The position numbers were made by a program, and so were the translations under genes. A DNA stretch of 42,272 bases. Origin: a virus (Duplodnaviria; Heunggongvirae; Uroviricota; Caudoviricetes). Under the pieces are notes generated by a model, which saw nothing but the letters and a program-made list of their open reading frames with translations, did no database searches and was not told the DNA's origin. Where the stretch lies: the IMG/VR virus record IMGVR_UViG_2529292726_000021, one strand, 5' to 3'. This document shows positions 13,765-39,590 of the stretch, in pieces (positions within the stretch are counted from its first letter, which is position 1; the number at the start of each line of letters is the position of its first letter).

Positions 13765-13846
13765 AAACCTCTTTCCTTAGTGCCTTTTGTATGTTATTTG
13801 GCTATTATAATAAGTAAGTGATTACTTAGTGGATTGTAGCAATAAA

Positions 13847-14527
13847 ATGGATGTAAAAATCACGATTTTGCAGGTTGATGTTGCCAACCTTCGCCCGAAT
13901 ACCTGGAACACCAATTCGGTTGGTGCGCAGAATTTTGAAAAACTGAAAGGTTCTATCGAAAAATTGGGCTTTTTTAAGCCAATTTTGGCTCGTGAACTTG
14001 AAGATGGATTTTTTGAAATCCTCGGCGGCGAACATCGCTGGCGTGCCGCTATTGAGCAAGGAATTTCAACGGTTCCAGTGCTTTCTGTGGGCAAAATTAG
14101 CGATGTCGTAGCTAAACAGATGTCACTGGTGGACAACGAGCGATACGGTGAAGACGACCAAATCGCATTGCAACGCTTCATTGAAGAAATTCAGTCAGAA
14201 CTTGACTATCAACTGTCTGAAATCGCCCCGTATGACGACGAAATCTCGATGGTTTTAGCAAAAGAGGCGGCAATCGACCTTGAAGCACTGGAGGCGTTGT
14301 CTCGTGGTAGTGATGAGCCTGTCGATACCGACAAACGAGAGAAAACCGAACGTGTCGGTGCGGAACATCAGACCATGCGCTTCAAAGTAACTTTCGATGC
14401 GTCAGATCGCGTTGCAGAAACCATAAAAAACATCATCAAAGAGCAGGCTATTAACACCGGTAATGAAATGGAGAACGCTGGTGAGGCTCTGGTGTGGCTG
14501 GTCGACTACTACAAGGAGCGTATGTAA
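13847..14527 (+). CDS. ParB-like N-terminal domain protein
   Basis: GGEHRWRAA resembles the ParB/sulfiredoxin GxxRxxA box; start ambiguous (GTG 13829 or ATG 13847). Confidence 0.55.
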   Translation: MDVKITILQVDVANLRPNTWNTNSVGAQNFEKLKGSIEKLGFFKPILARELEDGFFEILGGEHRWRAAIEQGISTVPVLSVGKISDVVAKQMSLVDNERYGEDDQIALQRFIEEIQSELDYQLSEIAPYDDEISMVLAKEAAIDLEALEALSRGSDEPVDTDKREKTERVGAEHQTMRFKVTFDASDRVAETIKNIIKEQAINTGNEMENAGEALVWLVDYYKERM

Positions 14528-15195
14528 TGACCAAAAAGTTTGAAATCGTATATCGCGACCCGGCAGATCTTATTCCCTATGAGATGAATGCCAAAAAGCA
14601 TGATGAACAGCAGATCAGAGATCTGGCCGCAGCCATTAAAAAGCGCGGATTTGACCAGCCAATTACGGTCGATAAGAACGACGTAATTATTACTGGCCAC
14701 GGCCTCCGTGAGGCTGCAATTTTTGCTGGACTTGAGCGCGTACCGGTTATTGTTCGTGATGATCTGAGTGATGACGAGGTACGTGCAAAGCGCCTTGAAG
14801 ATAACCGACTTGCCAGCATTGATTACGATGCAATTAAGCTACAGAAAGAGCTTGAGTCGCTTGTTCTGGACGATATCGAGGTTTTCGGCTTCGAAGAGCG
14901 TGAGTTGAATGTTCTCGTTGGCAGTATGACAGAAGAAATGGACACCGACTCGCTAGTTATCGATCTTGGCGAAGAAACTAAACGACAGAAGGATGAACAC
15001 ACCGAGATCAGTCGTGAAGTTGCAGCGGAAGAAGTACGTGTTGTCGACGTATTGGGCTTTAAAACGCTTCCTGCTGGCTCTGCCATTGTTGTTGGTGATT
15101 TGCTTGCCCACATGGAAGAAATGACGGGAGAAAGCGGGGTAGACGCATTTGTGGCATATGCGGAGAAGATCTCTTCCGGGGAGATGGCTGCATGA
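14527..15195 (+). CDS. second ParB-like domain protein
   Basis: TGHGLREAA box; ATG overlaps the preceding stop (TAATG); track start 14494 would overlap the upstream gene. Confidence 0.5.
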   Translation: MTKKFEIVYRDPADLIPYEMNAKKHDEQQIRDLAAAIKKRGFDQPITVDKNDVIITGHGLREAAIFAGLERVPVIVRDDLSDDEVRAKRLEDNRLASIDYDAIKLQKELESLVLDDIEVFGFEERELNVLVGSMTEEMDTDSLVIDLGEETKRQKDEHTEISREVAAEEVRVVDVLGFKTLPAGSAIVVGDLLAHMEEMTGESGVDAFVAYAEKISSGEMAA

Positions 15196-15857
15196 GCAAA
15201 TACATCATCAACGTATCGTTTCAGACACGCGTAAATAAAACCACGCGCACGTTGGAAATCGCTGAGTCGTTCGGGCTTGGCCTGGACGAAAAAGAGTGGA
15301 CGCTTTACGACAATCTGGAGCTGGAAGTGAAGCAGGGCGATGTGGTGTACATCACCGGCCAATCCGGTTCCGGCAAATCCGTTGTGCTGCGCGAGTTGCA
15401 ACGACAGATGAAGGATGAAGGGCTGTCTGTAGCCTCCATCGATGATTTTACCTTCGATAATGAGGTTAACGTCATCGATCAGTTGGGCAAAACGACCAGT
15501 GATGCGCTTGGGTTGTTATCTATGGCTGGTCTGAACGATGCATATCTGTTTGTTCGCAAGCCTTCTGAAATGTCAGACGGCCAGAAATATCGTCTCAAGA
15601 TTGCCAAACTGATTGAGTCAGGCGCTAAAGTATGGGCTGCTGACGAGTTCGGCGCTGTTCTAGACCGTGTAACCGCTCAGGTTGTGGCGTCTAACCTCCA
15701 GCGTGCCGCTCGAAAGGTTGGTGCGACGGTAATGGTGGCGACGACTCACGAAGACCTGAAGAACGCGCTGCGCCCGGATATGCAGATCACCAAGCACTAC
15801 AAAGAACGCGTGAAGGTGGAATATCACAATGGTAGTCATGATGAGGTCCATTCATGA
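15192..15857 (+). CDS. compact ABC-type ATPase (221 aa)
   Basis: Walker A GQSGSGKS, signature-like SDGQ, Walker B VWAADEFG, H-loop ATTHED; ATGA overlap with upstream gene. Confidence 0.65.
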   Translation: MSKYIINVSFQTRVNKTTRTLEIAESFGLGLDEKEWTLYDNLELEVKQGDVVYITGQSGSGKSVVLRELQRQMKDEGLSVASIDDFTFDNEVNVIDQLGKTTSDALGLLSMAGLNDAYLFVRKPSEMSDGQKYRLKIAKLIESGAKVWAADEFGAVLDRVTAQVVASNLQRAARKVGATVMVATTHEDLKNALRPDMQITKHYKERVKVEYHNGSHDEVHS

Positions 15858-16744
15858 CGGACATCATCATTAAACGCTACCGCCCTGAAGAGTTTCCGCG
15901 TCATCTGGACTTTCTGGAGCGAATGACTGTTACAAAGGGAACTGTAGAGGACTGGCACGCTCTTAAGTCGCTTCACTACAAAACAGACGGCAAACCTTTC
16001 GCGCCAACTTACTATCGCTGCGAACTTGATGACCGTCTGGTGGGCGTCGTGGTTATGGCTTACCCGAAACTACTGCTGGCACCTCGCCACCGCATGTTTC
16101 CTAAGTTGAAACCAACCACTAATACCACCGTGGCTAACCAGTACTGGGGTCGGTACGTGAATAACAACTTTGCGGTGATCAGTCGCTCAGTTGTGGATAC
16201 TCAGTATCGTGGCGTAGGCGTCTCTTATCGAATGATTAACCTGGTTAGCAGGATGCATGACCGGCCAATCATTGAGATCCAGTCCTCGATGAGCAAATAC
16301 AATCCCTTCGCCATGAAAGCAGGGTTTAAGTTCATCCGCCCTGAGCGACCGAAGAGCTATGAAAGTGCACTGCGTGTATTCCAGCGCCATTTTCGTTCCG
16401 ACCCGGGTGATAACGAGGCGATCGTCAAAGAGTTGTTCGCAATGAGCGAGTCTCGTCGTCGCCGTGCACTGCGTGATCTGGTGGCGGACTACCATAAGAA
16501 CAGTTCCCTGGCAAAAGCTGGGCGGAATCGTGGCACGACGATTCAGGACATTGCCGACAGTCTGGTGGACGAGGCCAGCATTGTGAAGTTGCTCAAGGAC
16601 ATTCACAACCTGAGCTTTACGTCTCCGTTGTATGGGGTGTATCGAAACCCTGACTTTGGTCGTCGACTGCCTGACACGCTGCCACTGCTGGCATTCGACA
16701 AACAACCTTTGGATAAACCGTTAGAAATTGCTTTACCGGCATAA
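15854..16744 (+). CDS. GNAT-like acetyltransferase-fold protein with C-terminal extension (296 aa)
   Basis: VVDTQYRGVGVSYRMINLV fits GNAT motif A (Q/R-x-x-G-x-G/A); ATGA overlap with the ATPase gene. Confidence 0.45.
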   Translation: MTDIIIKRYRPEEFPRHLDFLERMTVTKGTVEDWHALKSLHYKTDGKPFAPTYYRCELDDRLVGVVVMAYPKLLLAPRHRMFPKLKPTTNTTVANQYWGRYVNNNFAVISRSVVDTQYRGVGVSYRMINLVSRMHDRPIIEIQSSMSKYNPFAMKAGFKFIRPERPKSYESALRVFQRHFRSDPGDNEAIVKELFAMSESRRRRALRDLVADYHKNSSLAKAGRNRGTTIQDIADSLVDEASIVKLLKDIHNLSFTSPLYGVYRNPDFGRRLPDTLPLLAFDKQPLDKPLEIALPA

Positions 16745-16753
16745 GGATTTGCC

Positions 16754-17020
16754 ATGACGTTAACCGATAAACAAAAGGACATCATCAAAACGCTCAATCT
16801 CGGTTATGAGCGAGGTCATCTACTTGATCTGGACGAATTGCTTGAAGTTTTGCCGTACAAGACAACCAAGCAAAGTATCCAGTTCTCAATTCGCGCTCTG
16901 ATAAAAAAGGGGCTTGTGGAGAAAGGGCATACGCGCCAACGCAGTGACAATCGCTATCACCGCCGAACTCTTGGGTTAACCACTTTAGGTCGAGCCAAAG
17001 CGAAGTTACTGGTGATGTAA
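16754..17020 (+). CDS. small basic protein, possible winged-helix DNA-binding protein (88 aa)
   Basis: ATG with AAGGA upstream; basic C-terminus; fold assignment is a guess. Confidence 0.45.
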   Translation: MTLTDKQKDIIKTLNLGYERGHLLDLDELLEVLPYKTTKQSIQFSIRALIKKGLVEKGHTRQRSDNRYHRRTLGLTTLGRAKAKLLVM

Positions 17021-17022
17021 TC

Positions 17023-17121
17023 GGTCTGGGAGCTTATTTAAAGACCTGCTTCTGTATATATAAATAATAAGTAACTTATTAAATATATACGGAAGCAGGC
17101 TTAATAAGACATGCCCAGACC
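17023..17121. repeat. ~100-bp imperfect inverted repeat
   Basis: Outer arms GGTCTGGG / CCCAGACC; inner arms CCTGCTTCtGTATATAT / ATATACgGAAGCAGG around central AATAAGTAACTTATT. Confidence 0.6.
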
Positions 17122-17134
17122 TAATTAAACACCC

Positions 17135-17196
17135 CAGAAAACAAGTTGGTTAGCATACGCAGTAAACAAGTTGTTTTAGAGCGCATGGACGCGCTC
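17135..17196 (+). promoter_or_regulatory. tandem early-type motifs plus hairpin upstream of terminase genes
   Basis: CAGAAAACAAGTTGGTTAG (17135-17153), GTAAACAAGTTGTTTTAGAG (17162-17181), then GAGCGC-atggac-GCGCTC hairpin. Confidence 0.5.
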
Positions 17197-17216
17197 TGTG
17201 TGTTTTAGAGGGATCT

Positions 17217-17849
17217 ATGACGGTCGAAAAAGACGAGGTAAAAACTCGCCTGACACCAGCGGAGTGGGCCGAAGCTGAAGCCAAATGGACGTCAGGCGAA
17301 TATACACTCTCAAAGCTGGAGGAAGAGTACGGCATTCGTCGTGAAACACTCTCCAGACATTTCAAAAAGCGAGGATTAGAGAAAGGCGCGGACTCTGTTG
17401 GGAAGATGGTTCGTGAGTCTCTTAAATCTGACGCAGAGCTTCGCGCTAAAGCCCGTGCGGAAAAGATAGAAGAACGTCGTACACGTTATGACGGCTGGGC
17501 GTATGCGTTGGGGCAGATGGTGATGGTCGAAGTCACTACGGCCAAACGTGAGGGTAAGTCTTTAGGGGCGATTGAGGATTCTCTCAAGAGCTTACAGAGA
17601 GCCAGTAATACCCTTGCAAAATGCTTTGAAGTTTCGTCCAAAGCATTGGGCATGGATCATGCGGAAAATGACGAGGAAGAAATTCCGAACCTGGTATTTG
17701 GTGAGCTTACGCCTTCCCAGGTGGCGAAATTACGTCAGGAAGACGACGAGCCTGAAATCATCGATGACGAATTGCTTGAGACGTTGGAAGAAGAAGCTCT
17801 AAGCGAATTTGATGCGACAGATGATGGAAGTGAAGGGGAGGACGAATAA
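17217..17849 (+). CDS. terminase small subunit (putative)
   Basis: N-terminal HTH-like segment (TLSKLEEEYGIRRETLSRHFKKRG), acidic C-terminal tail, stop overlaps start of the large subunit. Confidence 0.6.
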   Translation: MTVEKDEVKTRLTPAEWAEAEAKWTSGEYTLSKLEEEYGIRRETLSRHFKKRGLEKGADSVGKMVRESLKSDAELRAKARAEKIEERRTRYDGWAYALGQMVMVEVTTAKREGKSLGAIEDSLKSLQRASNTLAKCFEVSSKALGMDHAENDEEEIPNLVFGELTPSQVAKLRQEDDEPEIIDDELLETLEEEALSEFDATDDGSEGEDE

Positions 17850-19105
17850 TGGCAATCCCGTCCTCGCTCAGTCTTGTGCAACTGCATTCTGGACAGATGA
17901 AAGTCTTCCAGTCTCCGCATCGATTTAAAGTTGTTTGTGCTGGTCGACGCTGGGGAAAATCCCGGTTGTCGATCTCCACTATTATTCGTGCGGCGGCAAA
18001 GGAAAAAAAGCAAAGGGTCTGGTATGTCGCTCCTACTTACCAGATGGCTCGCCAGATTTTGTGGGACGATCTACAGGAAGTTCTGCCTCGTAAGTGGGTT
18101 AGGAAAAAGAACGACACCACGATGACAATCGTGTTGAAGAACGGTTCGGAGATCGCCCTCAAAGGTGCTGATAAGCCTGACACTCTGCGCGGCGTAGCGT
18201 TGCATTTTGTAGTGCTTGATGAATTTCAGGATATGAAGGCTGACACCTGGTACAAGGTGTTACGACCTACTCTTTCATCGACACGCGGCGGTGCACTGAT
18301 CATTGGTACGCCAAAAGGCTTCTCGGAATTTCACAAACTGTGGACTATAGGCCAGAACGTAGAGCTGCAAAGAAAGGGACAGTGGAAGAGCTGGCAGTTT
18401 GTAACTGCCGATTCTCCGTTTGTGCCTACGGCGGAAATTGAAGCTGCTAAGAACGATATGGACCCGAAATCGTTCGCTCAGGAGTACCTGGCGAGCTTTG
18501 AGAACATGTCCGGGCGCGTTTACTACCCGTTCGATCGTAACGTGCATGTAAAACCGCTTCAGTTCAACCCTCGGTTGCCTATATGGGTAGGGCAGGACTT
18601 CAACATTGACCCGATGTCTTCAGTAATTTTGCAACCTCAGCCAAATGGTGAGCTATGGGCAATTGATGAATTGGTGCTCTTTTCCTCTAACACGGCAGAA
18701 GTTTGTGATGAGCTTGAGAGACGCTTCTGGCGCTGGAAATCACAGATAACGGTATTTCCAGATCCGGCAGGTGCTTATCGCCAACATGCTCGCGGGGAGT
18801 CTGACGTCGACATATTCAAAGAGAAGGGATTCTTACGTGTCGATTATTCGAAAAAGCCCCCGCCAATTGCGGATCGTGTTAATGCTGTTAACCGAATGCT
18901 GATGACCGCATCTGGAGATATCCGGCTGTATATCGATCCGAAGTGCAAGCATTTGATTGATTCACTGGAAAAAGTCATCTACAAGCCTGGAACACGAGAT
19001 ATGGATAAGACAGGTGGCATTGAGCATAGTGCAGACGCATTGGGCTATCCAGTACATCGTAGGTATCCAGTCAAAAACCGTGTTATTCTTGGTGGCTCTC
19101 GATAG
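17849..19105 (+). CDS. terminase large subunit
   Basis: Walker A-like GRRWGKS, Walker B VVLDEF, size 418 aa, position before portal. Confidence 0.85.
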   Translation: MAIPSSLSLVQLHSGQMKVFQSPHRFKVVCAGRRWGKSRLSISTIIRAAAKEKKQRVWYVAPTYQMARQILWDDLQEVLPRKWVRKKNDTTMTIVLKNGSEIALKGADKPDTLRGVALHFVVLDEFQDMKADTWYKVLRPTLSSTRGGALIIGTPKGFSEFHKLWTIGQNVELQRKGQWKSWQFVTADSPFVPTAEIEAAKNDMDPKSFAQEYLASFENMSGRVYYPFDRNVHVKPLQFNPRLPIWVGQDFNIDPMSSVILQPQPNGELWAIDELVLFSSNTAEVCDELERRFWRWKSQITVFPDPAGAYRQHARGESDVDIFKEKGFLRVDYSKKPPPIADRVNAVNRMLMTASGDIRLYIDPKCKHLIDSLEKVIYKPGTRDMDKTGGIEHSADALGYPVHRRYPVKNRVILGGSR

Positions 19106-19131
19106 GTAAGTGATTATCTAAGGTTATTCAA

Positions 19132-20706
19132 ATGGAATTGAACGACAAACAAATTAAGGATCTGGTGGCGCGACGCCACCCGGAATACGAAAAGAAAAAA
19201 GAACATTGGGACTTCCTCGCCAGCACTTACGCTGGCGGGCGTGGTTGGTTTACAGACAATATCTTTCGTTACTTTAAAGAGGGAGATCAGGAGTTTAAGG
19301 AGCGAGTTGAACGTGCTTATCGCTTCAACCACACTCGTGAGGTGGTAAACCTCATCAACAAATATCTCTTTAAAGAAGACATTCATAGAAATATCGAAGA
19401 GGCACCAGAGCAGATCCGCAATTTCTGGAAACGTGCGACTCGCCAGAATGCCTCTATTGACTCATTTATGGCCGCTATTGATTTGCAGTCGTCTATTTAC
19501 GGTCGCATATGGGTTGTTGTCGATAGCACGATGAGTGGTGATGTTGAGTCAGTAGCTGACGAGAAAAAGAAAGATGCTCGCGCCTACGCCTACTGGATTT
19601 CACCTCAGCAAATGCTGGATGTGGCATGGGACGACGACGGGAATATGTTGTGGGCGTTAATTGTGGAAGTCGCTCGTGATGACGCAGATCCTTTTACTTC
19701 TACAGGTCAGGAATCCCAACGTTATCGTCTGTGGACACAAAACGAGTGGTATCTGTTCCGTGAGGAAGTGAAGAAGGGCGCTGGTGGAGCAGGTCGCCGT
19801 CAGGCAAAAGTTATTTTAGAGGATAGCGGTGAGCATAATCTCGGCGTAGTTCCTGTGTTTCCTGTTGATTGTATTGGAGAAAGTGAATCACCGTATTTCA
19901 GCCCATCGTTGATCGATGATATCGCTTATCTTGATCGTGCGGTTGCAAACTATCTGTCAAACCTTGATGCCATTATTCAGGATCAGACATTTAGCCAGTT
20001 GGCTATACCAGTACAGTCGCTTTTACCTGGTGATGAAAACCACACTAAAGTGCTTGAAATGGGCACAAAGCGAGTCTTCACCTACGATTCTGAAGGTGGA
20101 AACCAGCCGTTTTATCTGTCACCAGACCCGAAACAAGCTCAGATGATCATCACTACGATTAAGACGGTGATTAACGAAATCTACCATTCAGTTGGTGTAG
20201 CTGGTGAGCGAACGAAGCAGGACAACGCACAGGGAATCGATAATTCATCTGGTGCCGCAAAAATGTATGACTTCCAGCGTGTAAATAGCTTGCTTGTCAC
20301 AAAAGCAGAGCGTCTGGAAAGGGCTGAACGCCAAATCATGCTACTGGTTGCGAAATGGATGGGGGTAGATCTGGACGAAGACCACTCTTTAATTGCGTAT
20401 CCAGAAAGTTTCGATATTCGTGGCCTCACAGATGAATTTTCTGTTGCCGAGAAACTATCATTACTTCAGGCACCGGACTCTGTACGTCGTCACCAGATGG
20501 AAATGCTTATTGAGAAGATTTTCCCGAACATTACTGAGGCGATGAAAAAGGAATTTGATAAAGATCTCTTGAATTTTCCGCCAAAAAATGATCTAAATAC
20601 CCTTGAAAATAAGTCAGTACTTACCTATGATCGTGGTGTGGCCCAAGAAAGCGGGCAAGATCAACCCCGAGGGAATGGGGACTCATCTACTCAAGAGAAC
20701 GAGTGA
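19132..20706 (+). CDS. portal protein (putative)
   Basis: 524 aa, directly downstream of the terminase large subunit and upstream of scaffold and capsid. Confidence 0.65.
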   Translation: MELNDKQIKDLVARRHPEYEKKKEHWDFLASTYAGGRGWFTDNIFRYFKEGDQEFKERVERAYRFNHTREVVNLINKYLFKEDIHRNIEEAPEQIRNFWKRATRQNASIDSFMAAIDLQSSIYGRIWVVVDSTMSGDVESVADEKKKDARAYAYWISPQQMLDVAWDDDGNMLWALIVEVARDDADPFTSTGQESQRYRLWTQNEWYLFREEVKKGAGGAGRRQAKVILEDSGEHNLGVVPVFPVDCIGESESPYFSPSLIDDIAYLDRAVANYLSNLDAIIQDQTFSQLAIPVQSLLPGDENHTKVLEMGTKRVFTYDSEGGNQPFYLSPDPKQAQMIITTIKTVINEIYHSVGVAGERTKQDNAQGIDNSSGAAKMYDFQRVNSLLVTKAERLERAERQIMLLVAKWMGVDLDEDHSLIAYPESFDIRGLTDEFSVAEKLSLLQAPDSVRRHQMEMLIEKIFPNITEAMKKEFDKDLLNFPPKNDLNTLENKSVLTYDRGVAQESGQDQPRGNGDSSTQENE

Positions 20707-20727
20707 TAAGTAACAAAGGGAATTTTT

Positions 20728-21615
20728 ATGAAACTGTGGCAAATGCTTTTGGCCCGTCGTGGTCTGATGGATGTTGCTGAAGCGCATGAGCGTGGGGGCG
20801 CTGGCGGTGTAGCTGCTGATAATGAGCAGAGTACACAAGATCCTGACAAACAGGGTGAACAAAAAGAGCAGCCGAAGGGCGATGACGAATACGCTGGCAT
20901 GACTCAGGAAGAGTTACTGGCCGAACTTCGTAAAACCAAGAAAGCTGGTGCTGAACTGCTGAAGGAGAACATGAAGCGCAAAGAGAAAGAGCGCACATTG
21001 GCCGATCAGCTTGCTCAGTACGGTGATATCGACCCGGCGCGTGCTCGCCAGCTTTTAGAAGCTGAACAGGCCGCAGAAAACGCACGTCGTGAGGCGGAGC
21101 AAGCTGAACTGGAGCGTCGTGGTGAGTTCGATGCTGTTAAAAAACAGATGATCGAAGCACACCAGGCAGAGCTGGCACAGCGTGACGAACGTTATGCAGC
21201 ACTGGAAAGTGAAAACGCATCACTGAAATCTCAATTAGTCGAGATGACCGTGGGCGCTTCCTTCAGTAACTCTCTCTTCCTACGTGACAAAGTTCTGATG
21301 ACTCCGGCAAAAGCCCGCGTGATCTACGGTTCTCATTTTGAAGTGGGTGAAGACGGTAGCGTAGTGGGTTATGACAAACCGGCAGGTCATAAAGAACGAG
21401 CTGTTCTGGTTGACGGTGAAGGTAAGCCGTTGCCGTTTGAATCCGCGATTGAACGCATTGTGCGGGCAGATCCGGAAGCTGACGCATTGATGCGTAGCGA
21501 AGCCAAGCATGGTGTAGGCTCACATTCCAAATCGACCTACACAATATCCCAACCGAAGAACAAGTCGACTATGGATAAGTTGGCCTCCGGTCTGGGGAAA
21601 ATTGGACTTAAGTAA
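20728..21615 (+). CDS. scaffolding protein (putative)
   Basis: Charged, coiled-coil-prone central region (AELLKENMKRKEKERTLADQLAQ ...); position between portal and capsid. Confidence 0.5.
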   Translation: MKLWQMLLARRGLMDVAEAHERGGAGGVAADNEQSTQDPDKQGEQKEQPKGDDEYAGMTQEELLAELRKTKKAGAELLKENMKRKEKERTLADQLAQYGDIDPARARQLLEAEQAAENARREAEQAELERRGEFDAVKKQMIEAHQAELAQRDERYAALESENASLKSQLVEMTVGASFSNSLFLRDKVLMTPAKARVIYGSHFEVGEDGSVVGYDKPAGHKERAVLVDGEGKPLPFESAIERIVRADPEADALMRSEAKHGVGSHSKSTYTISQPKNKSTMDKLASGLGKIGLK

Positions 21616-21640
21616 CATCTAAATCAAAGGGAATTGATAG

Positions 21641-22516
21641 ATGCCATTACTGCGTGAAGAAGCTGAAAAGCTGTCTAACAACGAACTTGAACAGGGCGTG
21701 ATTGAAACCATCATCGATCGCGATGACCTGTTTGCCATCCTGCCTTTTATGAAAATTACTTCAAAGGCATATCTGTACAACCGTGAAAAAACGCTGAGTG
21801 AAGCTACCTTCATCGACGTTAACGACACCATCCCGGAAGGTGCAGCAACCTTCGAAGAATGCGTTGCGAAACTGCGTATTCTGGCTGGTGACGTAGACGT
21901 TGATAAATTCCTGGCAACCACTATGGCCGACACCAATAACCAGTTGGCTATTCAGGTTCGTCAGAAAGTTAAAGGTCTGGCTCGTGCGTTCCGTCGCAAT
22001 CTGATTTTGGGTGACTCCAGCACCAACAACAAAGCGTTTGACGGCATTCCACGCCTGATGCACGCAGATCAGAAGATCGATATCGCCGGTGCATCTATGA
22101 CTTTCTCCATGTTCGACGAACTGGTCGATGCGGTGAAAGATCTTGGTGCTGACTGCATCATGATGCGTTCAGAGCACCTGCGTGCTTACCGTGCGCTGCT
22201 GCGTACAGTAAACGTAGGTCCGTCTGAAATCATGATGGAGAACTTCGGTCGTCCGATGCTGTGCCATAACGGCGTTCCGTTTATCGTAAACGACTTCATT
22301 CCGACCGATGCTGGCAAAGCAAGCATCTACTGCCTGCATCTGTCAGAAGAGAACGGCGTTACTGGTCTGTATGGCGGCGACAACGCAGGTATCGTTGTTG
22401 AAAACATTGGTACTGTACAGAACAAAGACGCAGTACGTACCCGTGTGAAGTGGTACTGCTCTCTGGCGAATAAGCACGATAAGGCTATCGCTGCACTGAC
22501 CAATGTAAAAATTTAA
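21641..22516 (+). CDS. major capsid protein (putative)
   Basis: 291 aa, followed by a strong terminator; position in head module. Confidence 0.6.
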   Translation: MPLLREEAEKLSNNELEQGVIETIIDRDDLFAILPFMKITSKAYLYNREKTLSEATFIDVNDTIPEGAATFEECVAKLRILAGDVDVDKFLATTMADTNNQLAIQVRQKVKGLARAFRRNLILGDSSTNNKAFDGIPRLMHADQKIDIAGASMTFSMFDELVDAVKDLGADCIMMRSEHLRAYRALLRTVNVGPSEIMMENFGRPMLCHNGVPFIVNDFIPTDAGKASIYCLHLSEENGVTGLYGGDNAGIVVENIGTVQNKDAVRTRVKWYCSLANKHDKAIAALTNVKI

Positions 22517-22548
22517 TCAGTGTTGTAGATAAGTAATTATCTATGTTT

Positions 22549-22577
22549 AAGGGTGGGCTATACGCCCACCCTTTTTG
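22549..22577 (+). terminator. rho-independent terminator after capsid gene
   Basis: GGGTGGGC-tatac-GCCCACCC followed by TTTTT. Confidence 0.8.
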
Positions 22578-22589
22578 TAGGAGCAAGAA

Positions 22590-23510
22590 ATGCCAGAACA
22601 AAAGATGAAGATTACGGAAGAGGCATTTTCGGATTTTACGGGGCATATGTGCCGCGCCGGATTTACCAATTCTATCTCCGATGAACCTTTAACCGAGCGG
22701 CAACAAAGTCAGCTATCTGCTTGTTTGCAGGCGGTTCCCTTCTCCCAATCCGTAAACATAACTCCGGCTTCACCATCAGTTTTGGTTGGGAAAACTGTTC
22801 AACTTAGTGCAGGTATTAGTATGGGTAAGAGTGCCAGTTCATTTACCTGGAAGTCAGCCAATGATCAAATTGCAACCGTTAACGGCACTGGATTAGTAAC
22901 TGGCGTAGCCCCAGGCAAAGTGAAAATTACCGCAACTGATCAGGAAACCCAGCTTTCCGCGTCAGTGGAAGTCACCGTAAATCCGGTAGCCGTTAAATCC
23001 GTAACGGTAACGCCAGACTCAACCTCTGTTGAGAAAGGGAAATCAGTCAGTCTGAAAGCGAATGTTCAGCCGTCAAATGCGACGAATAAGGCAGTTACCT
23101 GGTCTTCCAAAAATGAAGACAAGGCAACGGTAGACCAGAGCGGGAACGTTACTGGTGTAGAAGTTGGCACTGCGACGATTGAGATCGTTTCCCAAGATGG
23201 CAGCAAAAAGGCAACTGCAACGGTGGAAGTAACTGCGCCTGTTGTGGCTGTTACCGGCGTCGAAATCGACCCAAATAGCACAACCGTTGAGGCAAACAAA
23301 ACTGTTCAGCTGACCGCAAATGTCGAGCCGGCAGGAGCCACAAATAAAACCGTTACTTGGGAATCCAAAAATACCGAGTTTGCAACGGTGGACAGCGAAA
23401 CCGGTGTTGTAACTGGTGTTGCGGCTGGTACTGCCACAATCGAGGTTACTACCCAAGATGGTAGCCACAAAGCGACAGCGACCGTAGAGGTCACTGCCGC
23501 ACAGGAATAA
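22590..23510 (+). CDS. Ig-like (Big_2-type) repeat protein, possible head decoration
   Basis: Three tandem ~80-aa repeats of the form VTVTP...V..G....L.A.V.P.NATNK.VTW.S.N...ATVD..G.VTGV..G.ATI. Confidence 0.6.
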   Translation: MPEQKMKITEEAFSDFTGHMCRAGFTNSISDEPLTERQQSQLSACLQAVPFSQSVNITPASPSVLVGKTVQLSAGISMGKSASSFTWKSANDQIATVNGTGLVTGVAPGKVKITATDQETQLSASVEVTVNPVAVKSVTVTPDSTSVEKGKSVSLKANVQPSNATNKAVTWSSKNEDKATVDQSGNVTGVEVGTATIEIVSQDGSKKATATVEVTAPVVAVTGVEIDPNSTTVEANKTVQLTANVEPAGATNKTVTWESKNTEFATVDSETGVVTGVAAGTATIEVTTQDGSHKATATVEVTAAQE

Positions 23511-23554
23511 CCGATATTGGGCGGCGAAAGCCGCCCAAGAGGAGAGAAAGCGTT

Positions 23555-27646: not shown

Positions 27647-27653
27647 CAAGGGA

Positions 27654-30600: not shown

Positions 30601-32228
30601 AACAGGCAGCGCAACAGAAACTGGCAGCCGGATATCAGAAGGCTCTGGATAAAGCCGATCAGCTTATGGGGCAAATGGGTGAAAGCTCTAAGGCTACGGT
30701 ATCGTTTGATCAGTCTCTTCGCGATACAACGAAATCGCTGACAGATTTGGCTAATGCGGTTCCTAACGAGTTCATCACTCAAGAGATGATCGACAAGGCG
30801 AAAAAACGTCTTGAAGACCTCAAAAATGCGACACCTGAATATCGCGAGATGTTTAATCGCCGCAATGTTGAGCAGATGATCTCCACTTGGGCACCGGAGG
30901 CGGATTCCATTATTAGTGCTGGCTATACGCCGTCTCGCGAAGAGAAAGTTGCTGATTTCGAAGACACCTACAACCGCAATCTCAAAGCGTTGATAGAACT
31001 TCGTGATAAGGCGTCTGATCCTAAAGTCGTGGCGCTTTATACAAAGAAAATCAATCAACTTATTGCTGCTGGCAATACCGCGCTTATTAAAGAGACGGGG
31101 ACCGCGACGCAGAAGTTGGCACTGGAATACGAAAACCTGGCAGAGCAGATCGAAAGCACCTGGACTGATTTGTTTAGTGGCTTAACTGATGTCCTGACTG
31201 ATTTCGTTATTAACGGGAAGATGAGCTTCTCCAGCCTATCTCAGTCCATTTTGAAAGATATCACCAATATGGTCGTGAAGTCGCAAATCACGCTGCCTCT
31301 AATGAACATGTTGGGGATGGGAACCACCGCAGCTGGTAGTTCACAGAGTGGCAATTTGCTCACTGGAGTTGCTTCTGCCGTTGCCAATCAAGGTGTACGA
31401 ATGGGCAACACTGTTAATGGCGACAAGTCGGTAGGAGAAGCCACGAAGGAGACGTCCAGTTCGGTAACTGGATTGGGGCAAACAACACAGCAGACCACCA
31501 GCGCAATTGGCACAGCAACAAATGCGATTGGTAGCTGGGTATCGGGGCTATTTGATAGCACCGAAGCCAAAGATGCTGAGACAAAAGCAGTGAAGGACTC
31601 CATCTTTTCGATGCAGAACCTCAGCTCTGTTACCGGCGCGCTGTCTGCCGCGTTTGCAATGCTTGGAGCTAATGCTTCCGGCTCTGGTAATAAGTGGTTG
31701 AGTTTTGGAGCAACGGTTGCATCTGGTCTTGTTTCAGCTTGGGCTGGCGGTGGATTCGATGGATTGATGTCCGGTTCTTCTGGCTCAACTTCCGGGTTCA
31801 ACAATCTGACCAGTTCTGCTGCCGATGGCACGAATGGTATTCCTGCAATTCCGAAGTTTGCAAATGGTGGCATATTCGGAAAAGACGGCGTGATCCCGCT
31901 CCGGGCATACCAGAAAGGCGGTATCGCCAACTCCCCTCAATTGGCGTTGTTTGGGGAAGGCGATATGAATGAGGCGTATGTTCCATTGCCTGATGGCCGA
32001 ACAATCCCTGTAACGCTCAGTACCGATGGTATGAGTGGAGGCGGAAATGTTCTTTCTCCTGTATCAATTGAGATCAACGTCCATAGTGACGGTAGCACGA
32101 CAGAATCCGGCGATACAGAAAGCATATGGAACAATGCCGCTCAACGGATGAAAGCAATCGCGCTTGAGACTATCGCTCAAGAGAAACGCCCTGGCGGATC
32201 ACTCAACCCAAACACTCAACGTAACTAA
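27654..32228 (+). CDS. tail tape measure protein
   Basis: About 1524 codons from ATG 27654 (AAGGGA upstream); coiled-coil-prone N-terminal half, hydrophobic Gly/Ala-rich central segment; follows G/GT. Confidence 0.85.
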   Translation: MSQNVEFILSLEDKQFTASIDRAGKLLTRFGEQVTKPAQKIQTFERSLGSVARIIGVLESKLDSTADKLQDVAAGFELASDATRKMRGNITSLNSGLKALIERVDTTTSSVDKLTASLRKVQSELNDFSDWATYASKSASRFGTEVKEASASVSGMNTRLNTTTKRLSNWGVSTSQAAEGLKKVREQMDEVIGRQQLISKPVRVRTSGGSDGGSGRRSGSGHSGKSNEGGMFSGLRGNIFLLGEIGDAARTVTDIMFGWQKPIVEAAAEMERMRVMLRGLNKEKSNPGQAAADDMKYIVDMAQNAPFAMQALTDSFVKFRSAGLDPTDGSLKALVDSVARFGGDSELLKRAAVAVQQMSGKGVVSMEELRQQLGEAVPNAMQAMADAAGITMGELTKAVASGTVEAKQALSLMFVGLRAENENAAKDMMQTYTGALAQLQTSFTLFADRVGQAGYLDSLSKGMKELASIMNSAEGISFANSLGSGLTTAIDGLRQLAQWLAKNQELVINLGKVVAAMVAFKLMRAGIMGVVGAGSQMVSTFATMATAIQTPFNLGATAVTRFNRAARMGLAPIPSLIFAIRGAITGLKGAFAGLTAFIAANPIGAAFTVATVAVAGLITYMTMLRSETSKVVDEIRKIPEAMTAAKRAQMAEYKARLEQQITQKEQELKSGEKVVYGPGMAGTTVKINHDERKRIENELNELRKKRDETNETIARGDLAVAKRLAKETAESQIEKILEENRDFAATFVKARQEALEKIQKIKDDGSLSDDEKNKLLAPLRETVNKSYLEPAQKLVDSLSSRKNATEKQIATLNDQLEKAKKEGNTEQIQKLQGSIRGYQEHLEVVAQELTQAEFKRDNAAKSGNGLVSINGDVLGLGTTDKAAQKALAQYMRNQMDSATYQRTLPDGTPMMDFEGKPIIGPKQLKTQLNLQKASSASSLEKMSDEERAAAIAALTKAREQDAAAAEKAAQRSANASQRAAKKEQAAQQKLAAGYQKALDKADQLMGQMGESSKATVSFDQSLRDTTKSLTDLANAVPNEFITQEMIDKAKKRLEDLKNATPEYREMFNRRNVEQMISTWAPEADSIISAGYTPSREEKVADFEDTYNRNLKALIELRDKASDPKVVALYTKKINQLIAAGNTALIKETGTATQKLALEYENLAEQIESTWTDLFSGLTDVLTDFVINGKMSFSSLSQSILKDITNMVVKSQITLPLMNMLGMGTTAAGSSQSGNLLTGVASAVANQGVRMGNTVNGDKSVGEATKETSSSVTGLGQTTQQTTSAIGTATNAIGSWVSGLFDSTEAKDAETKAVKDSIFSMQNLSSVTGALSAAFAMLGANASGSGNKWLSFGATVASGLVSAWAGGGFDGLMSGSSGSTSGFNNLTSSAADGTNGIPAIPKFANGGIFGKDGVIPLRAYQKGGIANSPQLALFGEGDMNEAYVPLPDGRTIPVTLSTDGMSGGGNVLSPVSIEINVHSDGSTTESGDTESIWNNAAQRMKAIALETIAQEKRPGGSLNPNTQRN

Positions 32229-32270
32229 CTATCGACTGCCCCGGTCGGGGCAGTCTCACAAGGATGTGAG

Positions 32271-32606
32271 ATGGAAAGACAAACGTTTAATTGGTATCCA
32301 GATTACGAATCTGAAAAGAGCGTAAAACCGAATGTAACGGTACTTAATTTTGGTGATGACTACGAGCAGCGACAGGCTCAAGGTCTTAATCGTATTAAAG
32401 AAGAATGGTCGTTAACCTTTACCAGATCATACAACGAAATTAATGCAATCGATGATTTCCTGACTGAGCGATCAGGTGTTGAATCGTTCTATTGGGTTAA
32501 TCCAAGAGGCAAGCAGATTGTAGTTGTATGTGACAGTCATACGGTCAAGCGATATCAGGGGTACTGTGTCTTAACTGCTACATTCAGACAAGTATTTGAG
32601 GCTTAA
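32271..32606 (+). CDS. minor tail protein, lambda gpM-like
   Basis: 111 aa; FGDDYEQR and ESFYWVNP segments recalled as matching lambda M; position after tape measure. Confidence 0.7.
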   Translation: MERQTFNWYPDYESEKSVKPNVTVLNFGDDYEQRQAQGLNRIKEEWSLTFTRSYNEINAIDDFLTERSGVESFYWVNPRGKQIVVVCDSHTVKRYQGYCVLTATFRQVFEA

Positions 32607-32688
32607 GCATCTGGATAAGTAAGTACTAATTTACTATCATTGTGGCGCTGACAGGATGTTAGCGCCTACTTATTTCAAGGATGAAACA

Positions 32689-33387
32689 ATGGGAATTAAA
32701 GCTGATATTCAGAGCTTATCTCCCTCTGCACTCATTGAGTTGTTCGTACTGGATATGTCGAACACAACTTCAGGGGGGAAGCTATTCTTCCACGCCGGAA
32801 CAAACGAACTGATGCAACCGGTCGTCTGGCAAGGAGTGACATACGAGCCGTGGCCAATCAAAGCATCAGGCTTTGACAAAACTGGCCAGGGAACGTTGCC
32901 ACGTCCAAAAATTCAGGTATCGAACTTTGCCGGAACCGTCTCTGCGGAAGTTCAGGCGAACGACGATCTTGTTGGCTGCCGCATTATTCGCAAGATGACG
33001 CTGGCTCGCTTCCTCGATGCCGTTAATTTTAAAGACGGTAATCCAACAGCAGATCCAAACCAACATTTCCCGGATGAAATGTGGTTTATCGAACAGAAAA
33101 CGCTCGAAACTCATCAGGTTGTCGAGTTTGAGTTGTCCAGTGTGTTCGATTTGATGGGGGTGCAACTGCCGTATCGTCAGATCATTAAAAACACCTGCCC
33201 GTGGAAATACCGAGGGCCAGAATGCGGCTATACCGGTCCATATTTCGACAAAAATAACCAGCAGACGTCTATGTCTGGTGCTGATTACTGCACAAAACGT
33301 TATGACGCCTGTAATGCGCGTCGGAATTATTTTGCCAACGGAGTGATCCATTTTGGCGGGTTTATTGGAGCTACGCGATATGGGTAA
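32689..33387 (+). CDS. minor tail protein, lambda gpL-like
   Basis: ARFLDAVNF, CPWKYRGPECGYTGP and FGGFIG segments match remembered lambda L; start moved to ATG 32689 (AAGGA upstream). Confidence 0.8.
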   Translation: MGIKADIQSLSPSALIELFVLDMSNTTSGGKLFFHAGTNELMQPVVWQGVTYEPWPIKASGFDKTGQGTLPRPKIQVSNFAGTVSAEVQANDDLVGCRIIRKMTLARFLDAVNFKDGNPTADPNQHFPDEMWFIEQKTLETHQVVEFELSSVFDLMGVQLPYRQIIKNTCPWKYRGPECGYTGPYFDKNNQQTSMSGADYCTKRYDACNARRNYFANGVIHFGGFIGATRYG

Positions 33388-37700: not shown

Positions 37701-39497
37701 GCGGCGGCTCTTATTGCTAAGGAAAGCGAGGCTCGTGTTGAAGGTGATGCCGCAAACGCTAAACAACTGGAAGTGTTGCAGTCGACGGTAGAGGAAAGTT
37801 CCGCAGCCGTTGAAGAAATGAAAAAGACGGTTGCAGAGGTCGATCGTGCCAGTGCAGAACTGACTACGAACATTGAGGCGTTAGCTAAAACAAATATTGA
37901 CCTGGCTCTTCGTCAAGATGAAGACCAGCACAAGCAGATGGTCAATAACGCGAAGATCGCAACAACACAGAAAACCTTTGCTGATGATATGTCCGCAATG
38001 GCCACGAAGGTTGAGGAAATTCGCGTAGAAATTGGCGAAGACATTAAGGCCAGTATTCTGGAAGAGTCCACCGCTCGTGCCGATGGCGATGAAGCGTTGG
38101 CAAAGCGTGTCACTCAGCTGCAATCTAAGTTTGAAGGAGATATCAGCGCGGCGATTAGTACAGAGCAGGAGGCTCGTACATCTGCCGATGAAGCTCTGAC
38201 GACACAAATCACTCAGCTTGAGTCGAAAGTAAGCAACGATATCGTCGCAGCTATTAAGGAAGAGCAAGAAGCCCGAGCAACGGAAGATTCGGCTCTGGCA
38301 AGCCAGATCACCCAACTTCAGGCAAAGGTTGATGATGATATTTCTGCTGCAATACGTAGTGAGCAGGAGGCCCGAGCAAGCGGGGACTCTGCGTTAGCCA
38401 AACAAATAAACCAGCTTCAGTCAAAGGTTGACGGTGATATATCCGCTGCCATCACTCAGGAGCAGGAGGCCAGAGCAAGTGCTGACCAGGCGCTCTCACG
38501 AGAAATTAACAGCCTGCGAGCACAAACCGGAACTGATATTGCCGCAGCGGTTGCTGTAGAGACAAAAGCAAGGACTGATGCCGATAGTGCATTGTCTACC
38601 CAGATTACGTCTCTTACAGCAAAAGCTAATGATCTCAAGGCGTCTCTTGCCAGAGAAACAACGGCTCGTGCAGATGGTGATACCGCTTTAACAAAAGAGG
38701 TTTCAAGTTTAAAAGCACAGACAGCGAAAGATATTAGTGCGGCCGTTGCAGTTGAAACGCAGGCTCGAACTGATGCTGACTCGGCGTTGTCGTCTCAGAT
38801 CACCAAGCTGACCTCTCAATACAAAGAGGATATTAAAGCGGCTGTAGCAACCGAAACGAAAACGCGTACAGAGCAAGATGCTGCATTGGCGACTCAAATC
38901 ACAAACTTAGAGTCTCAAACGGCAGCCAACATTTCCGCGGCGGTCACAACTGAAACGAAAGCGAGAACGCAGGCAGATAATGCTCTGAGTGGGCGAATCG
39001 ATACTCTGAAAGCAGAGGTGAATGGAAATACCGCGACAATTCAACAGCAGGCAACAGCTATTGCTGATACCAACAAAAAAGTGTCAACCGCGTGGACGTT
39101 GAAAATGGAGACTTCAACGAGCGGAGGGCAGAAGTATGTTGCCGGTATTGCGCTTGGTATTGACACCACTGGGCTATCTCAGTTTTTGGTTCAGGCGGAC
39201 AGGTTTGGTTTGGTCAACTCTGTTAACGGGAAGATCACAACGCCATTTGTTATCGAAAACAGTATCGCCTATATGAATGGAGCGTATATCAAGGATGGCA
39301 CAATCACCAATGCAAAAGTAGGCGATCTGCAATCTACCAATTTTGTTAGCGGTAGATCTGGATGGCGATTCGGCAAAAATGGAACGCTTGAGATCAACGG
39401 TAATAGCGGCGGCAATGGGCGATTGGTTATAAATGGTCAGCGGATTGACGTTTATGACGATAACAACGTCTTACGAGTAAGAATTGGCCGTCTGTGA
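34773..39497 (+). CDS. central tail fibre / host specificity protein, lambda gpJ-like with coiled-coil repeat insertion
   Basis: N-terminal and central regions match remembered lambda J (e.g. FGCTSRGQAHRVGLWLL); C-terminus has the J-type segment KYVAGIALGIDTTGLSQFLV; about ten tandem 31-aa repeats in between. Confidence 0.85.
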   Translation: MEQFKKKKLPLLIAGAGGKKSKSSSRTPVEADDTVNSRAMAAILDLLGEGVIGGLVNGAKSIFIDDLPILNEDGSSNFSGITWDFRDGSQDQTPMAGFDFVETPKSVNIQLKKTHDVTVSIDNDEADRVRVIMKFPSLRSVDKSSGDTNGTTVKYKFQIANADATFSDVVAEGEKSVDITLTAKKTGVYYRSYELKLPKPGRAYKVRVIRLTDDNSSQYLYNDTWVDSIGEIVDTPMNYPNSALVGLKVNSEQFGSTMPSRSYLVRGIKIRVPSNYNEYTNTYVGVWDGTFKLLSSSNPAWILYDLLTNTRYGLGQFVSESMIDLGQLYQIGRYCDEEVDDGFGGKEKRFAINTQITSRQDAYRLIQDIAGAFRGMVFWAGGMVNIMQDSPSDPVMMFTNSNVKDGLFTYKGSARKDRPSVALVTYNNKEDGYKQNIEYVEDQDAMRRYGERKTEVVAFGCTSRGQAHRVGLWLLYTARMESDVITFTAGLDASFLMPGETVLIQNKYRAGKRNSGRIVEFTKNSITLDAPVSLAKSGSFIRILNQEGKIVERDVLETGENITKVTFSKALSSAETPVLNGVWTITEPDLEPMRVRIVNIAQGETPGSFDITAVENNPSKYEAIDNGATLIPQNTTVLDPTYSKPSNLQITEGTYLSSPGNLSVKLTATWEGKSPEYWISWRRSDENNVSNWQSARVTEEQYEIVNVAENGRYDFQLYAVSFNGKKTEIISTVYQVLGTMTPPDAPTSLTAVGDYRNVILNWVNPDSVDLDHINVYASQTNNLDTAKLIAESASTTFTHAGLGDSETWYYWVRASNKRGMLSPPNSNLGTEATTRDVLSFLTGKITSSELGQALLEDINSKVSQEAVDELNEHINQSVESLEGAVNDVKEDIAELDKQFSDNLAGFEIKFNERSDALENAQTELKGEVSATIDKVNEAFEKIDATDAAIVEIENTVSEHDKALANTVEAIKAARDEAAALIAKESEARVEGDAANAKQLEVLQSTVEESSAAVEEMKKTVAEVDRASAELTTNIEALAKTNIDLALRQDEDQHKQMVNNAKIATTQKTFADDMSAMATKVEEIRVEIGEDIKASILEESTARADGDEALAKRVTQLQSKFEGDISAAISTEQEARTSADEALTTQITQLESKVSNDIVAAIKEEQEARATEDSALASQITQLQAKVDDDISAAIRSEQEARASGDSALAKQINQLQSKVDGDISAAITQEQEARASADQALSREINSLRAQTGTDIAAAVAVETKARTDADSALSTQITSLTAKANDLKASLARETTARADGDTALTKEVSSLKAQTAKDISAAVAVETQARTDADSALSSQITKLTSQYKEDIKAAVATETKTRTEQDAALATQITNLESQTAANISAAVTTETKARTQADNALSGRIDTLKAEVNGNTATIQQQATAIADTNKKVSTAWTLKMETSTSGGQKYVAGIALGIDTTGLSQFLVQADRFGLVNSVNGKITTPFVIENSIAYMNGAYIKDGTITNAKVGDLQSTNFVSGRSGWRFGKNGTLEINGNSGGNGRLVINGQRIDVYDDNNVLRVRIGRL
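38067..39050 (+). repeat. tandem ~93-bp coding repeats inside the J-like gene
   Basis: Repeated peptide pattern AR(A/T)x(A/G)DxAL(A/S)xQI(T/N)QLQ(S/A)KVxxDI(S/A)AAIxxEQE, about ten copies. Confidence 0.7.
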
Positions 39498-39590
39498 TGG
39501 TGGAAAAAAAATTTTATATCGGTAAAAATAGGTAAGTATCTACTTAATGGCGGGCAAGGATAGCCCGCCAAATCAAGGAGCATATTCAAC

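Follow-up and report, generated by a model that had tools for sequence, protein, structure and literature searches.

A family-wide 20-bp dyad of SSU5-like phage-plasmids is a predicted operator of lytic transcription units

Introduction

Several described systems place one short DNA sequence at many positions of a replicon. The OB sites of the IncP plasmid RK2, which are bound by KorB and read TTTAGCSGCTAAA, and the sites of Noc and ParB are sets that are each bound by one global regulator, and parS sites, Noc-binding sites (NBS) and OB sites are palindromes of about 14–20 bp with little or no unconserved centre. The operators of the P1 repressor C1 are asymmetric 17-mers of the ATTGCTCTAATAAATTT type. 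The P1 record annotates the C1 operators Oref, Ossb, Olpa and OrepL between or over -35 and -10 elements, and it gives the late promoters a 9-bp inverted repeat, AAGT(G/T)ACTT, followed after 4 nucleotides (nt) by the -10. All 11 P1 late promoters carry this type of Lpa-binding repeat (PMC10695390). Here we describe a 20-bp dyad that recurs in a 42,272-nt stretch of tailed-phage DNA (IMG/VR record IMGVR_UViG_2529292726_000021), the whole of which we call the window, and across its relatives among the SSU5-like phage-plasmids. We conclude that the dyad is a real, conserved, family-wide cis-regulatory DNA site, and that it is very probably the binding site of a dimeric DNA-binding protein of the phage-plasmid that controls transcription of lytic units. 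We found nothing in the searchable literature on how the lysis–lysogeny switch and lytic expression are wired in SSU5-like phage-plasmids, and no published description of the dyad in the searchable literature on SSU5, pHCM2, pMT1 and Cyrano.

A megablast search with bases 13000–33000 of the window returned Escherichia coli 'phage CMS-2020a' at 97.6% identity, PhiR41_1 and Cyrano at 94–97%, and Salmonella phage SSU5 and Klebsiella phage-plasmids at about 81%. These identities assign the window to an SSU5-like phage-plasmid of E. coli, and on this sequence comparison it is about 42 kb of an element of about 108 kb.

One dyad in one register

The original prediction listed eight related TAAGTA/TACTTA palindromes at the junctions of gene modules in the window. 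All eight are present and all are intergenic. Exact TAAGTA-N(0-7)-TACTTA occurs four times in the window and eight times when one mismatch is allowed, with all but one copy intergenic. The TAAGTA hexamer alone is not enriched (15 copies against about 15 expected by our own calculation from base composition), and the signal thus resides in the paired arms. Scanning the SSU5 genome revealed both the full length of the common unit, ATARGTAAGT/ACTTACYTAT (the slash marks the axis of symmetry), and its genome-wide spread. Seven of the eight listed sites, those at 4793, 13810, 19102, 22525, 26100, 32615 and 39528, are copies of this dyad in one register, and an additional copy that had been missed lies at the 3′ end of the portal gene (Table 1). 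The dyad has an internal periodicity of 4 bp (TAAG TAAG / CTTA CTTA), which is why its copies had presented different apparent spacers. A split of the copies into two or three families, with 18-mers around a 4-nt centre and 14–16-mers around a 2-nt centre, was rejected because the single 20-bp register fits all of them. The remaining palindrome, at 17066–17080, is not a member; it is the A+T-rich centre (AAGT-A-ACTT) of another, longer hairpin. The idea of a family of related copies therefore survives, with one sequence wrongly included and the 20-bp register overlooked.

We scored matches to ATARGTAA-N4-TTACYTAT with at most three mismatches among the 16 specified bases, using dinucleotide shuffles as controls. 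The window contains eight loci, compared with a mean of 0.36 and a maximum of two in 100 shuffles; a second search tool found nine matches against 0.38 expected, and none of 100 shuffles attained nine. Intergenic gaps were listed after PhiR41_1 proteins had been mapped onto the window, and seven of the eight loci fall in this intergenic fraction (4.3 kb, 10% of the window), whereas coding sequence, which amounts to 38 kb, holds one. When only the intergenic segments were shuffled, 0.13 sites were expected, against six that lie wholly within segments. The whole-window and intergenic-only shuffles together rule out an origin by chance or composition, and, as the original prediction anticipated for a genuine signal, the dyad is not equally frequent in coding regions or in shuffled sequence.

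The same enrichment is found in the relatives, with 26 loci in SSU5 (0.33 in dinucleotide shuffles), 24 in Cyrano (1.1), 26 in Klebsiella pJN2-26 (0.73) and eight in a segment of Yersinia pestis pMT (0.19). The copies are not restricted to the proposed module boundaries: complete relatives carry 24–26 loci, nearly all of them intergenic, over most of the lytic genome. In these relatives dyads also precede genes for single-stranded DNA-binding protein, ribonucleotide reductase, thymidylate synthase, a methyltransferase and a helicase, and they precede head, tail and lysis genes too.

Conservation and concerted change of the arms

Orthologous dyads are preserved across E. coli, Salmonella, Klebsiella and Y. 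pestis pMT, and the surrounding intergenic DNA diverges in the E. coli/Salmonella/Klebsiella alignment. Retention of the orthologues between diverging flanks indicates purifying selection on a symmetric site. The sequence at 4797–4812 is a poor match to the 20-mer, yet its orthologues in Cyrano, SSU5 and Klebsiella are conserved between diverged flanks, and the copy in the portal gene is nearly invariant in E. coli, Salmonella and Klebsiella despite its coding location. Orthologues of the site between terminase and portal read ATAGGTAAGTGCTTACCTAA in SSU5 and, as a perfect dyad followed by CAT, ATAAGTAAGTACTTACCTAT in Klebsiella. At late-region sites the upstream arm is better kept than the downstream arm (0.7 versus 1.75 mismatches, from only about seven independent loci).

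Relatives whose large terminase is just 53–59% identical carry a dyad between helicase and ParB genes, between terminase and portal, around the capsid gene and before tail genes. The Acinetobacter variant, ATTAGTAAGC/GCTTACTAAT, occurs at 33 loci against 0.5 expected, and the Aeromonas variant, ATCAGTAA-N4-TTACTGAT, at seven loci against 0.01 expected. Both occupy the same intergenic positions as the enterobacterial form, and both arms have therefore changed together. At the post-capsid site the Klebsiella orthologue ATAGGTAAGTACTTACCTAT shows a symmetric change of both arms (A..T to G..C), in which ATAGATAA...TTATCTAT of the window corresponds to ATAGGTAA...TTACCTAT. Judged from these alignments, such concerted change is the behaviour of a dimeric-protein site that co-evolves with its protein. 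We also considered a multi-frame stop cassette and rejected it: TAAGTAAGTGA has stops in three frames, but the Aeromonas ATCAGTAA variant loses most of these and keeps the dyad.

As a side observation, a scan of viral contigs for the perfect 18-mer returned 47 SSU5-like loci, and the perfect palindrome GTAAGTAAGTACTTACTTAC/T was also present at 28 viral-contig loci, in nine groups, outside the SSU5-like elements. These 28 loci have no nucleotide and almost no translated similarity to SSU5-like references. In one such unrelated group (L070, 7163–7229) the palindrome lies 19 nt upstream of a small gene for a YdaS/Cro-like helix-turn-helix (HTH) protein and adjoins a second dyad, ATCAGTCAGCACTTACTGAT, that resembles the Aeromonas-type variant. 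The unrelated contigs show that such dyads occur elsewhere as operator-type sequences.

Overlap with promoter-like elements

Beyond the dyad itself, the position matrix of the sites is A-rich on the left and reads (C/T)AT on the right. The final three bases of an arm and the three that follow make up -10-like hexamers (TATCAT, TATGAT, TACTAT and similar) at a fixed offset. At three conserved loci (20603–20631 in the window, and 3527 and 57446 in Cyrano) TTGAAA stands precisely 17 bp upstream and the dyad forms the spacer. The window example, TTGAAA-N17-TATGAT, agrees with the promoter consensus at 10 of 12 positions, is the top sigma-70 match in 20 kb of the late region and precedes the gene at 20728 by about 100 nt. 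The late region is otherwise depleted of sigma-70-like promoters, with eight found against 20 expected; three of the eight, including the best, coincide with dyads.

In the divergent region between the helicase and ParB genes the better hexamer (TATTAT/TATAAT) points, as read from the sequence, at the helicase gene. On the minus strand of the 13810 site the arm extends into TATTAT(AAT), a good -10 directed at that gene; at the Cyrano orthologue (105107) the minus-strand TATTAT scores 7.0 bits and the plus strand -3.1, and TATAAT stands at the helicase-facing end of the orthologues from SSU5, Klebsiella and Acinetobacter. Expression of the helicase gene that flanks the Cyrano copy is 46 fragments per kilobase per million mapped reads (FPKM) in the LF82 lysogen, and the ParB gene is at the floor.

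Expression in the Cyrano lysogen

Gene-level RNA sequencing (RNA-seq) of Cyrano in LF82 has been published (PMC9928086, supplementary file 2). We compared each rightward Cyrano gene with the gene preceding it; 21 of these genes have a dyad just upstream. Dyad-linked genes changed by a mean log2 of -0.46 in LB, -1.29 in B6 and -0.97 in MB1 relative to the preceding gene, compared with +0.14 to +0.49 for the remaining Cyrano genes. The lysogen thus shows a step down at the sites where a constitutive promoter would give a step up, and that interpretation was rejected. The dyads head units that are silent in the plasmid-prophage, often right after expressed genes, and in LB the linked genes read at background. 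CYRAN_56 lies behind a near-consensus TTGAAA-N17-TATCAT promoter with a dyad as spacer, the dyad being the sole conserved element within that spacer, and its expression in LB is at the detection floor. A near-consensus sigma-70 promoter that is silent would need a repressor.

In macrophages at 6 h, several genes behind dyads rose over the genes that precede them: CYRAN_56 by +3.6 log2, CYRAN_60 by +3.65, the orthologous major tail gene CYRAN_12 by +2.5, CYRAN_107 (downstream of the orthologue of the 4793 site) by +1.3 and CYRAN_4 (at the counterpart of the 20609 site) by +1.2. Among the roles that the original prediction had offered, a binding site for a common regulator is the one that gains support, from the enriched symmetric intergenic dyad, the conservation of orthologues, the joint change of the arms and the overlap with promoters.

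Predicted mechanism and candidate binding proteins

A more specific form of our interpretation, in which the dyads are dispersed operators of a prophage repressor that overlap lytic promoters, we regard as evenly balanced between right and wrong. A dimeric phage-plasmid protein would recognise the 20-bp operator, with its A-rich left and YAT right flank, as duplex DNA. Every copy would coincide with or adjoin the promoter of a transcription unit of the lytic cycle, and in the plasmid-prophage state the bound protein would silence these units by occluding RNA polymerase, while adjacent terminators would insulate them against read-through. Loss or inactivation of the protein would allow the promoters to fire.

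The most likely predicted binder is an XRE-type HTH protein, CYRAN_45, which is encoded next to the integrase gene, outside the window. This 128-aa protein has a weak HTH_19 match, and its gene is expressed in the lysogen about 10-fold above background. A perfect core, GGTAAGT(A/G)CTTACC, lies 38 nt upstream of it in Cyrano and Klebsiella. Every phage-plasmid record found from E. coli or Klebsiella has a CYRAN_45-type gene, Acinetobacter has a 38%-identical homologue, and the gene is absent from the virulent phage SSU5, which retains all dyads. The annotations of SSU5, Cyrano and pJN2-26 include no C1-like product.

Other candidates were tried and rejected. A phage sigma factor is suggested by a sigma-70-family protein in the Acinetobacter relative, but tblastn detected no enterobacterial homologue, and a factor confined to that relative cannot explain a motif common to all lineages; its gene (NZ_CP016299.1 30780–31445, L015) lies between genes for a MoxR-like ATPase and dnaE. 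SSU5-like enterobacterial phages lack a homologue of the YdaS/Cro-like HTH protein of L070, and a different palindrome lies upstream of the Acinetobacter homologue. The FljA-like protein of the window tracks a different motif.

Several observations weigh against repressor control from these sites. Binding by a protein, the identity of that protein and the sign of the regulation are all inferred. The putative repressor gene has a single core site nearby, where a cluster of operators is usual, and one operator on early and late units alike would give no temporal order without a second factor. Most sites lack any -35 (mean about 0 bits), and promoters of this kind would be weak once de-repressed unless activated, which favours an activator. 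The -10-likeness is equal on the two flanks (3.8 bits sense versus 3.5 antisense, p = 0.52; 5.8 versus 5.9 in Acinetobacter), so the hexamers may be part of the protein's site rather than true -10s; no sense-strand promoter asymmetry was found on the site flanks, Acinetobacter included. Several sites lie just 11–27 nt from a start codon and others directly upstream of terminator-like hairpins, both awkward positions for a promoter. The RNA-seq data are those of Cyrano, a relative with about 97% identity; they resolve expression by gene, and many values are at the detection floor.

Alternative explanations

We consider it unlikely that the dyads mark activator-dependent lytic promoters, in which the dyad replaces the -35 and a bound phage-plasmid factor recruits host RNA polymerase to a -10-only promoter, as has been proposed for P1 Lpa at the -22 box of the 11 P1 late promoters. 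At most sites a -10-like hexamer stands at a fixed offset and there is no -35, and the dyad core AAGTACTT, with TATCAT 3 nt further on, resembles the P1 late arrangement of AAGT(G/T)ACTT, 4 nt and TAnnAT. P1 is likewise a phage-plasmid of the same hosts, SSU5-like elements have P1-like genes (Cra, TciA/B), and the silence of uninduced units and the rise of some genes under stress would also fit a missing activator. No homologue of P1 Lpa was found by tblastn in the window, SSU5 or Cyrano (best E 0.68–0.77), nor convincingly by BLASTP; the weak tblastn match is an unrelated 189-aa protein (52 residues aligned pairwise, with 18 identities and three gaps), Lpa belonging to phrog_1704 and the matched window protein to phrog_13473. 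An 'Lpa-like' product is not annotated in SSU5, though the P1 record uses that name. The element here is a 20-bp dyad centred at about -19.5 instead of a 9-bp box at -22; it also precedes replication and nucleotide-metabolism genes, and its hexamers are symmetric, with no sense-strand bias. The TTGAAA-N17-TATCAT promoters with a dyad spacer, silent in the lysogen, call for repression. More doubtful again is a new promoter class in which a phage-plasmid protein unrelated to P1 Lpa binds the dyad in place of -35 recognition and thereby switches some 25–30 '-10-only' promoters. If this were true, some of these promoters could be bidirectional, given the -10-like hexamers flanking both arms; a single factor would drive the early and late lytic regulon across Enterobacterales (including Y. 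pestis pMT), Acinetobacter and Aeromonas; and the same site could serve as an operator in the lysogen and as an activator site after induction.

We weighed three further readings of the palindromes. Loading of two ParB_N proteins at some 25–30 parS- or OB-like palindromes, silencing or organising the plasmid-prophage in the manner of KorB on RK2 or of Noc on the Bacillus subtilis chromosome, seems to us quite improbable. Two tandem ParB_N genes (PF02195, E = 3e-13 and 4e-7) do follow the site beside the helicase gene, in E. coli, Salmonella, Klebsiella, Yersinia, Acinetobacter and Aeromonas; ParB1 matches structures of Spo0J, ParB and Noc (E = 3e-9), its GEHRWRA box resembles the CTP-binding motif, and the length of the palindrome and its closed centre resemble the parS, NBS and OB format. 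No HTH is recognisable after the N-domain in either protein, however, their C-terminal halves are acidic and ParB2 matches in the N-domain only; expression of ParB1 is at the detection floor in the lysogen, where silencing is required, and partition is provided by a separate ParA locus, which has a small partner gene of its own. The original prediction also allowed for an RNA processing signal, and small hairpins that control processing, stability or translation between cistrons would suit the window copies, which all lie in transcribed intercistronic positions of the late operon, 11–70 nt before start codons, some with GNRA-like loops (GTGA, GTAA), in a window that encodes an FljA-like post-transcriptional repressor. 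A sense-strand RNA hairpin would accept G:U but not A:C. Arm mismatches at 65 sites comprise 34 G:T and 39 A:C (p = 0.64), equal counts that match independently degenerate half-sites (R at position 4), and the window copies fold as single strands at -1.2 to -3.7 kcal/mol, four of seven not clearly better than shuffles. The site is therefore read as duplex DNA. The sites are symmetric and are found in divergent promoter regions too, and the motif with which the FljA-like gene co-occurs is a different one, leaving the RNA reading with very little probability. Slighter still is the case for linkers that promote module exchange between related phages, the remaining proposal for these palindromes. 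The sites do lie between gene blocks, with about 20 bp of identity within a genome, and the immunoglobulin (Ig)-domain gene, absent from PhiR41_1, starts just past the 22525 site and its terminator. Of about ten homology breakpoints against the two close relatives Cyrano and PhiR41_1 (5321/5897, 7198/7664, 10170/11177, 22302–22581/23544, 37412/38994 and 40019), only the edge of this Ig-gene indel (22581) is near a site; dyad symmetry, concerted arm change and a fixed hexamer offset would be unexpected in a linker.

Other features of the window

From its start the window holds the end of a MetRS gene, a block of small genes, and a leftward block with the FljA-like regulator and the UvsW-like helicase; the genes that follow run rightward, with the two ParB_N genes, ABC-type ATPases, small and large terminase, portal, capsid, tail genes and tail fibre. 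The cluster at 13847–16744, between helicase and terminase, encodes two paralogous ParB_N proteins, at 13847–14527 and 14527–15195, an ABC-type ATPase and a 296-aa protein, and the relatives from Klebsiella, Yersinia, Acinetobacter and Aeromonas preserve this synteny.

Table 1 Dyads and other features of the window. Mismatches are to the dyad pattern
Feature	Sequence	Coordinates	Strand	Mismatches	Context
Weak dyad	TATTGTAAGTACATACTTAC	4793–4812			Contains perfect 7+7 palindrome GTAAGTA-CA-TACTTAC; 2 nt after terminator-like hairpin and T-run (4766–4791); 44 nt before gene starting at 4856
Dyad	ATAAGTAAGTGATTACTTAG	13810–13829		1	Between UvsW-like helicase gene (minus strand, start 13764) and first ParB_N gene (start 13847)
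Dyad	ATAGGTAAGTGATTATCTAA	19102–19121		2	Overlaps large terminase stop codon (19103–19105); ends 10 nt before portal start codon (19132)
Dyad	ATAAGTCAGTACTTACCTAT	20609–20628, within promoter-like 20603–20631	+	1	Inside 3′ end of portal gene
Dyad	GTAGATAAGTAATTATCTAT	22525–22544		3	9 nt past major capsid gene stop; followed after 6 nt by terminator-like hairpin (22551–22567 and T-run), then Ig-domain gene (22590)
Dyad	ATTGGTAAGTATATACTTAC	26100–26119		3	Includes perfect 16-bp palindrome GTAAGTATATACTTAC; overlaps promoter-like TTGAAT-N18-TATACT (26087–26116); about 50 nt before major tail protein gene (26170)
Dyad, degenerate right arm	ATAAGTAAGTACTAATTTAC	32615–32634		3	Overlaps TGGATA-N17-TATCAT (32612–32640); followed by hairpin 32644–32666, then tail-tip L gene (32689)
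Dyad	ATAGGTAAGTATCTACTTAA	39528–39547		2	A-tract before; conserved in Cyrano and SSU5; directly followed by hairpin GGCGGGC-N7-GCCCGCC (39549–39569), then tail fibre gene (39591)
Long hairpin, 55 bp	CCTGCTTCTGTATATATAAATAATAAGTAACTTATTAAATATATACGGAAGCAGG	17045–17099, extendable to about 99 bp (17023–17121, arms up to 39 nt)			Upstream of small terminase gene
Second motif	GAAAACAAnTTGTTTT	1232–1248, 1283–1299, 3908–3924, 4392–4408, 5295–5311, 6070–6086, 17137–17153, 17162–17178; weaker 2723–2739
FljA-like gene		8656–9174	-		PF03614, E = 1e-68

The long hairpin has a folding energy of -17.4 kcal/mol (z = -8.8) and is present in three copies per relative genome (near 31175, 78095 and 108357 in Cyrano, and near 33470, 78316 and 103278 in SSU5). 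The deposited linear records of SSU5 and Cyrano start and finish at its centre. Its possible roles are those of packaging site, origin or bidirectional terminator; its centre, AAGT-A-ACTT, shares the form of the -22 box of P1 late promoters.

A second palindromic motif, GAAAACAAnTTGTTTT, closely precedes, by a few bases, the ribosome-binding sites of small genes in the early region, and two copies stand ahead of the small terminase gene. There are 23 matches in the window against 3.4 expected, 21 against 0.14 in Klebsiella and six against 0.1 in Y. pestis pMT; none was found in the Acinetobacter locus, where an FljA-like gene is not annotated. The motif presumably resembles the leader of Salmonella fliC. 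Repressors of the FljA type act on the mRNA of fliC, after transcription (PMC2652032), so this motif may be the operator of the FljA-like protein in 5′ untranslated regions.

The stretch at 2858–3361 (504 bp) has no mapped gene; it is strongly skewed and A+C-rich, with many short ACAC/CCA/AAC repeats, and terminates in a G-rich run, GGGGAGGGAAGGAGGG. A repetitive 89-aa open reading frame lies just downstream, and otherwise none of the relatives' proteins mapped there. The Ig-domain gene after the capsid gene (22590–23510) is present in the window, Cyrano and SSU5 and absent from PhiR41_1, and its product has repeats in common with the C terminus of the major tail protein. At the right end of the window, about 41942–42272 is IS2 (IS3 family), 99% identical to IS2 on thousands of plasmids. 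Tail-fibre homology to Cyrano stops at 41952, and the tail fibre gene is therefore apparently interrupted by IS2.

Implications and comparison with known systems

Homologues of the large terminase are found in 1037 PLSDB plasmids, including Y. pestis pMT and many from Klebsiella, E. coli, Enterobacter and Acinetobacter. Some phage-plasmids have been reported to carry resistance genes (PMC9600943). A single, readily recognised operator at almost all lytic transcription units would provide a map of the regulon and a handle for finding the regulator; it helps to predict co-regulation of cargo genes with the lytic cycle and serves as a marker for annotating related elements. The concerted half-site change between host lineages offers a natural data set on the co-evolution of protein–DNA specificity. 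Although conceptually unsurprising, the dyad should be useful for dissecting a clinically widespread family of phage-plasmids.

The OB sites of RK2 and the Noc/ParB sites are similar to the dyads in being palindromes dispersed in intergenic and promoter regions, and ParB-family genes adjoin one dyad. The sequence of OB is unrelated to that of the dyad, however, the ParB_N proteins here lack a recognisable HTH, and the dyads hold a fixed register with -10-like hexamers, which OB sites do not. The Lpa promoters of P1 share with the dyads a short AAGT/ACTT inverted repeat just upstream of a -10 or -10-like hexamer, usually without a -35, in many copies that head operons. The Lpa box is 9 bp (AAGTnACTT) and is followed by 4 nt, whereas the dyad extends over 20 bp, lacks a central base in its core and is followed by 3 nt. 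Lpa promoters are late only; the dyads are not, and they have -10-like hexamers on both sides.

The C1 network of P1 resembles the system predicted here in that a plasmid-prophage holds many lytic units under one dispersed site, on or adjoining sigma-70 elements, and keeps the genes silent in the lysogen. Its operator sequence is unrelated to the symmetric 20-bp dyad, and the 283-aa C1 protein has no evident homologue here, where the candidate binder is a 128-aa XRE-type HTH protein. P1 late genes need Lpa and are under no direct C1 control, whereas here the same site also stands before head, tail and lysis genes. The dyads and their predicted binder would thus follow a logic similar to that of the C1 network without belonging to it by descent.

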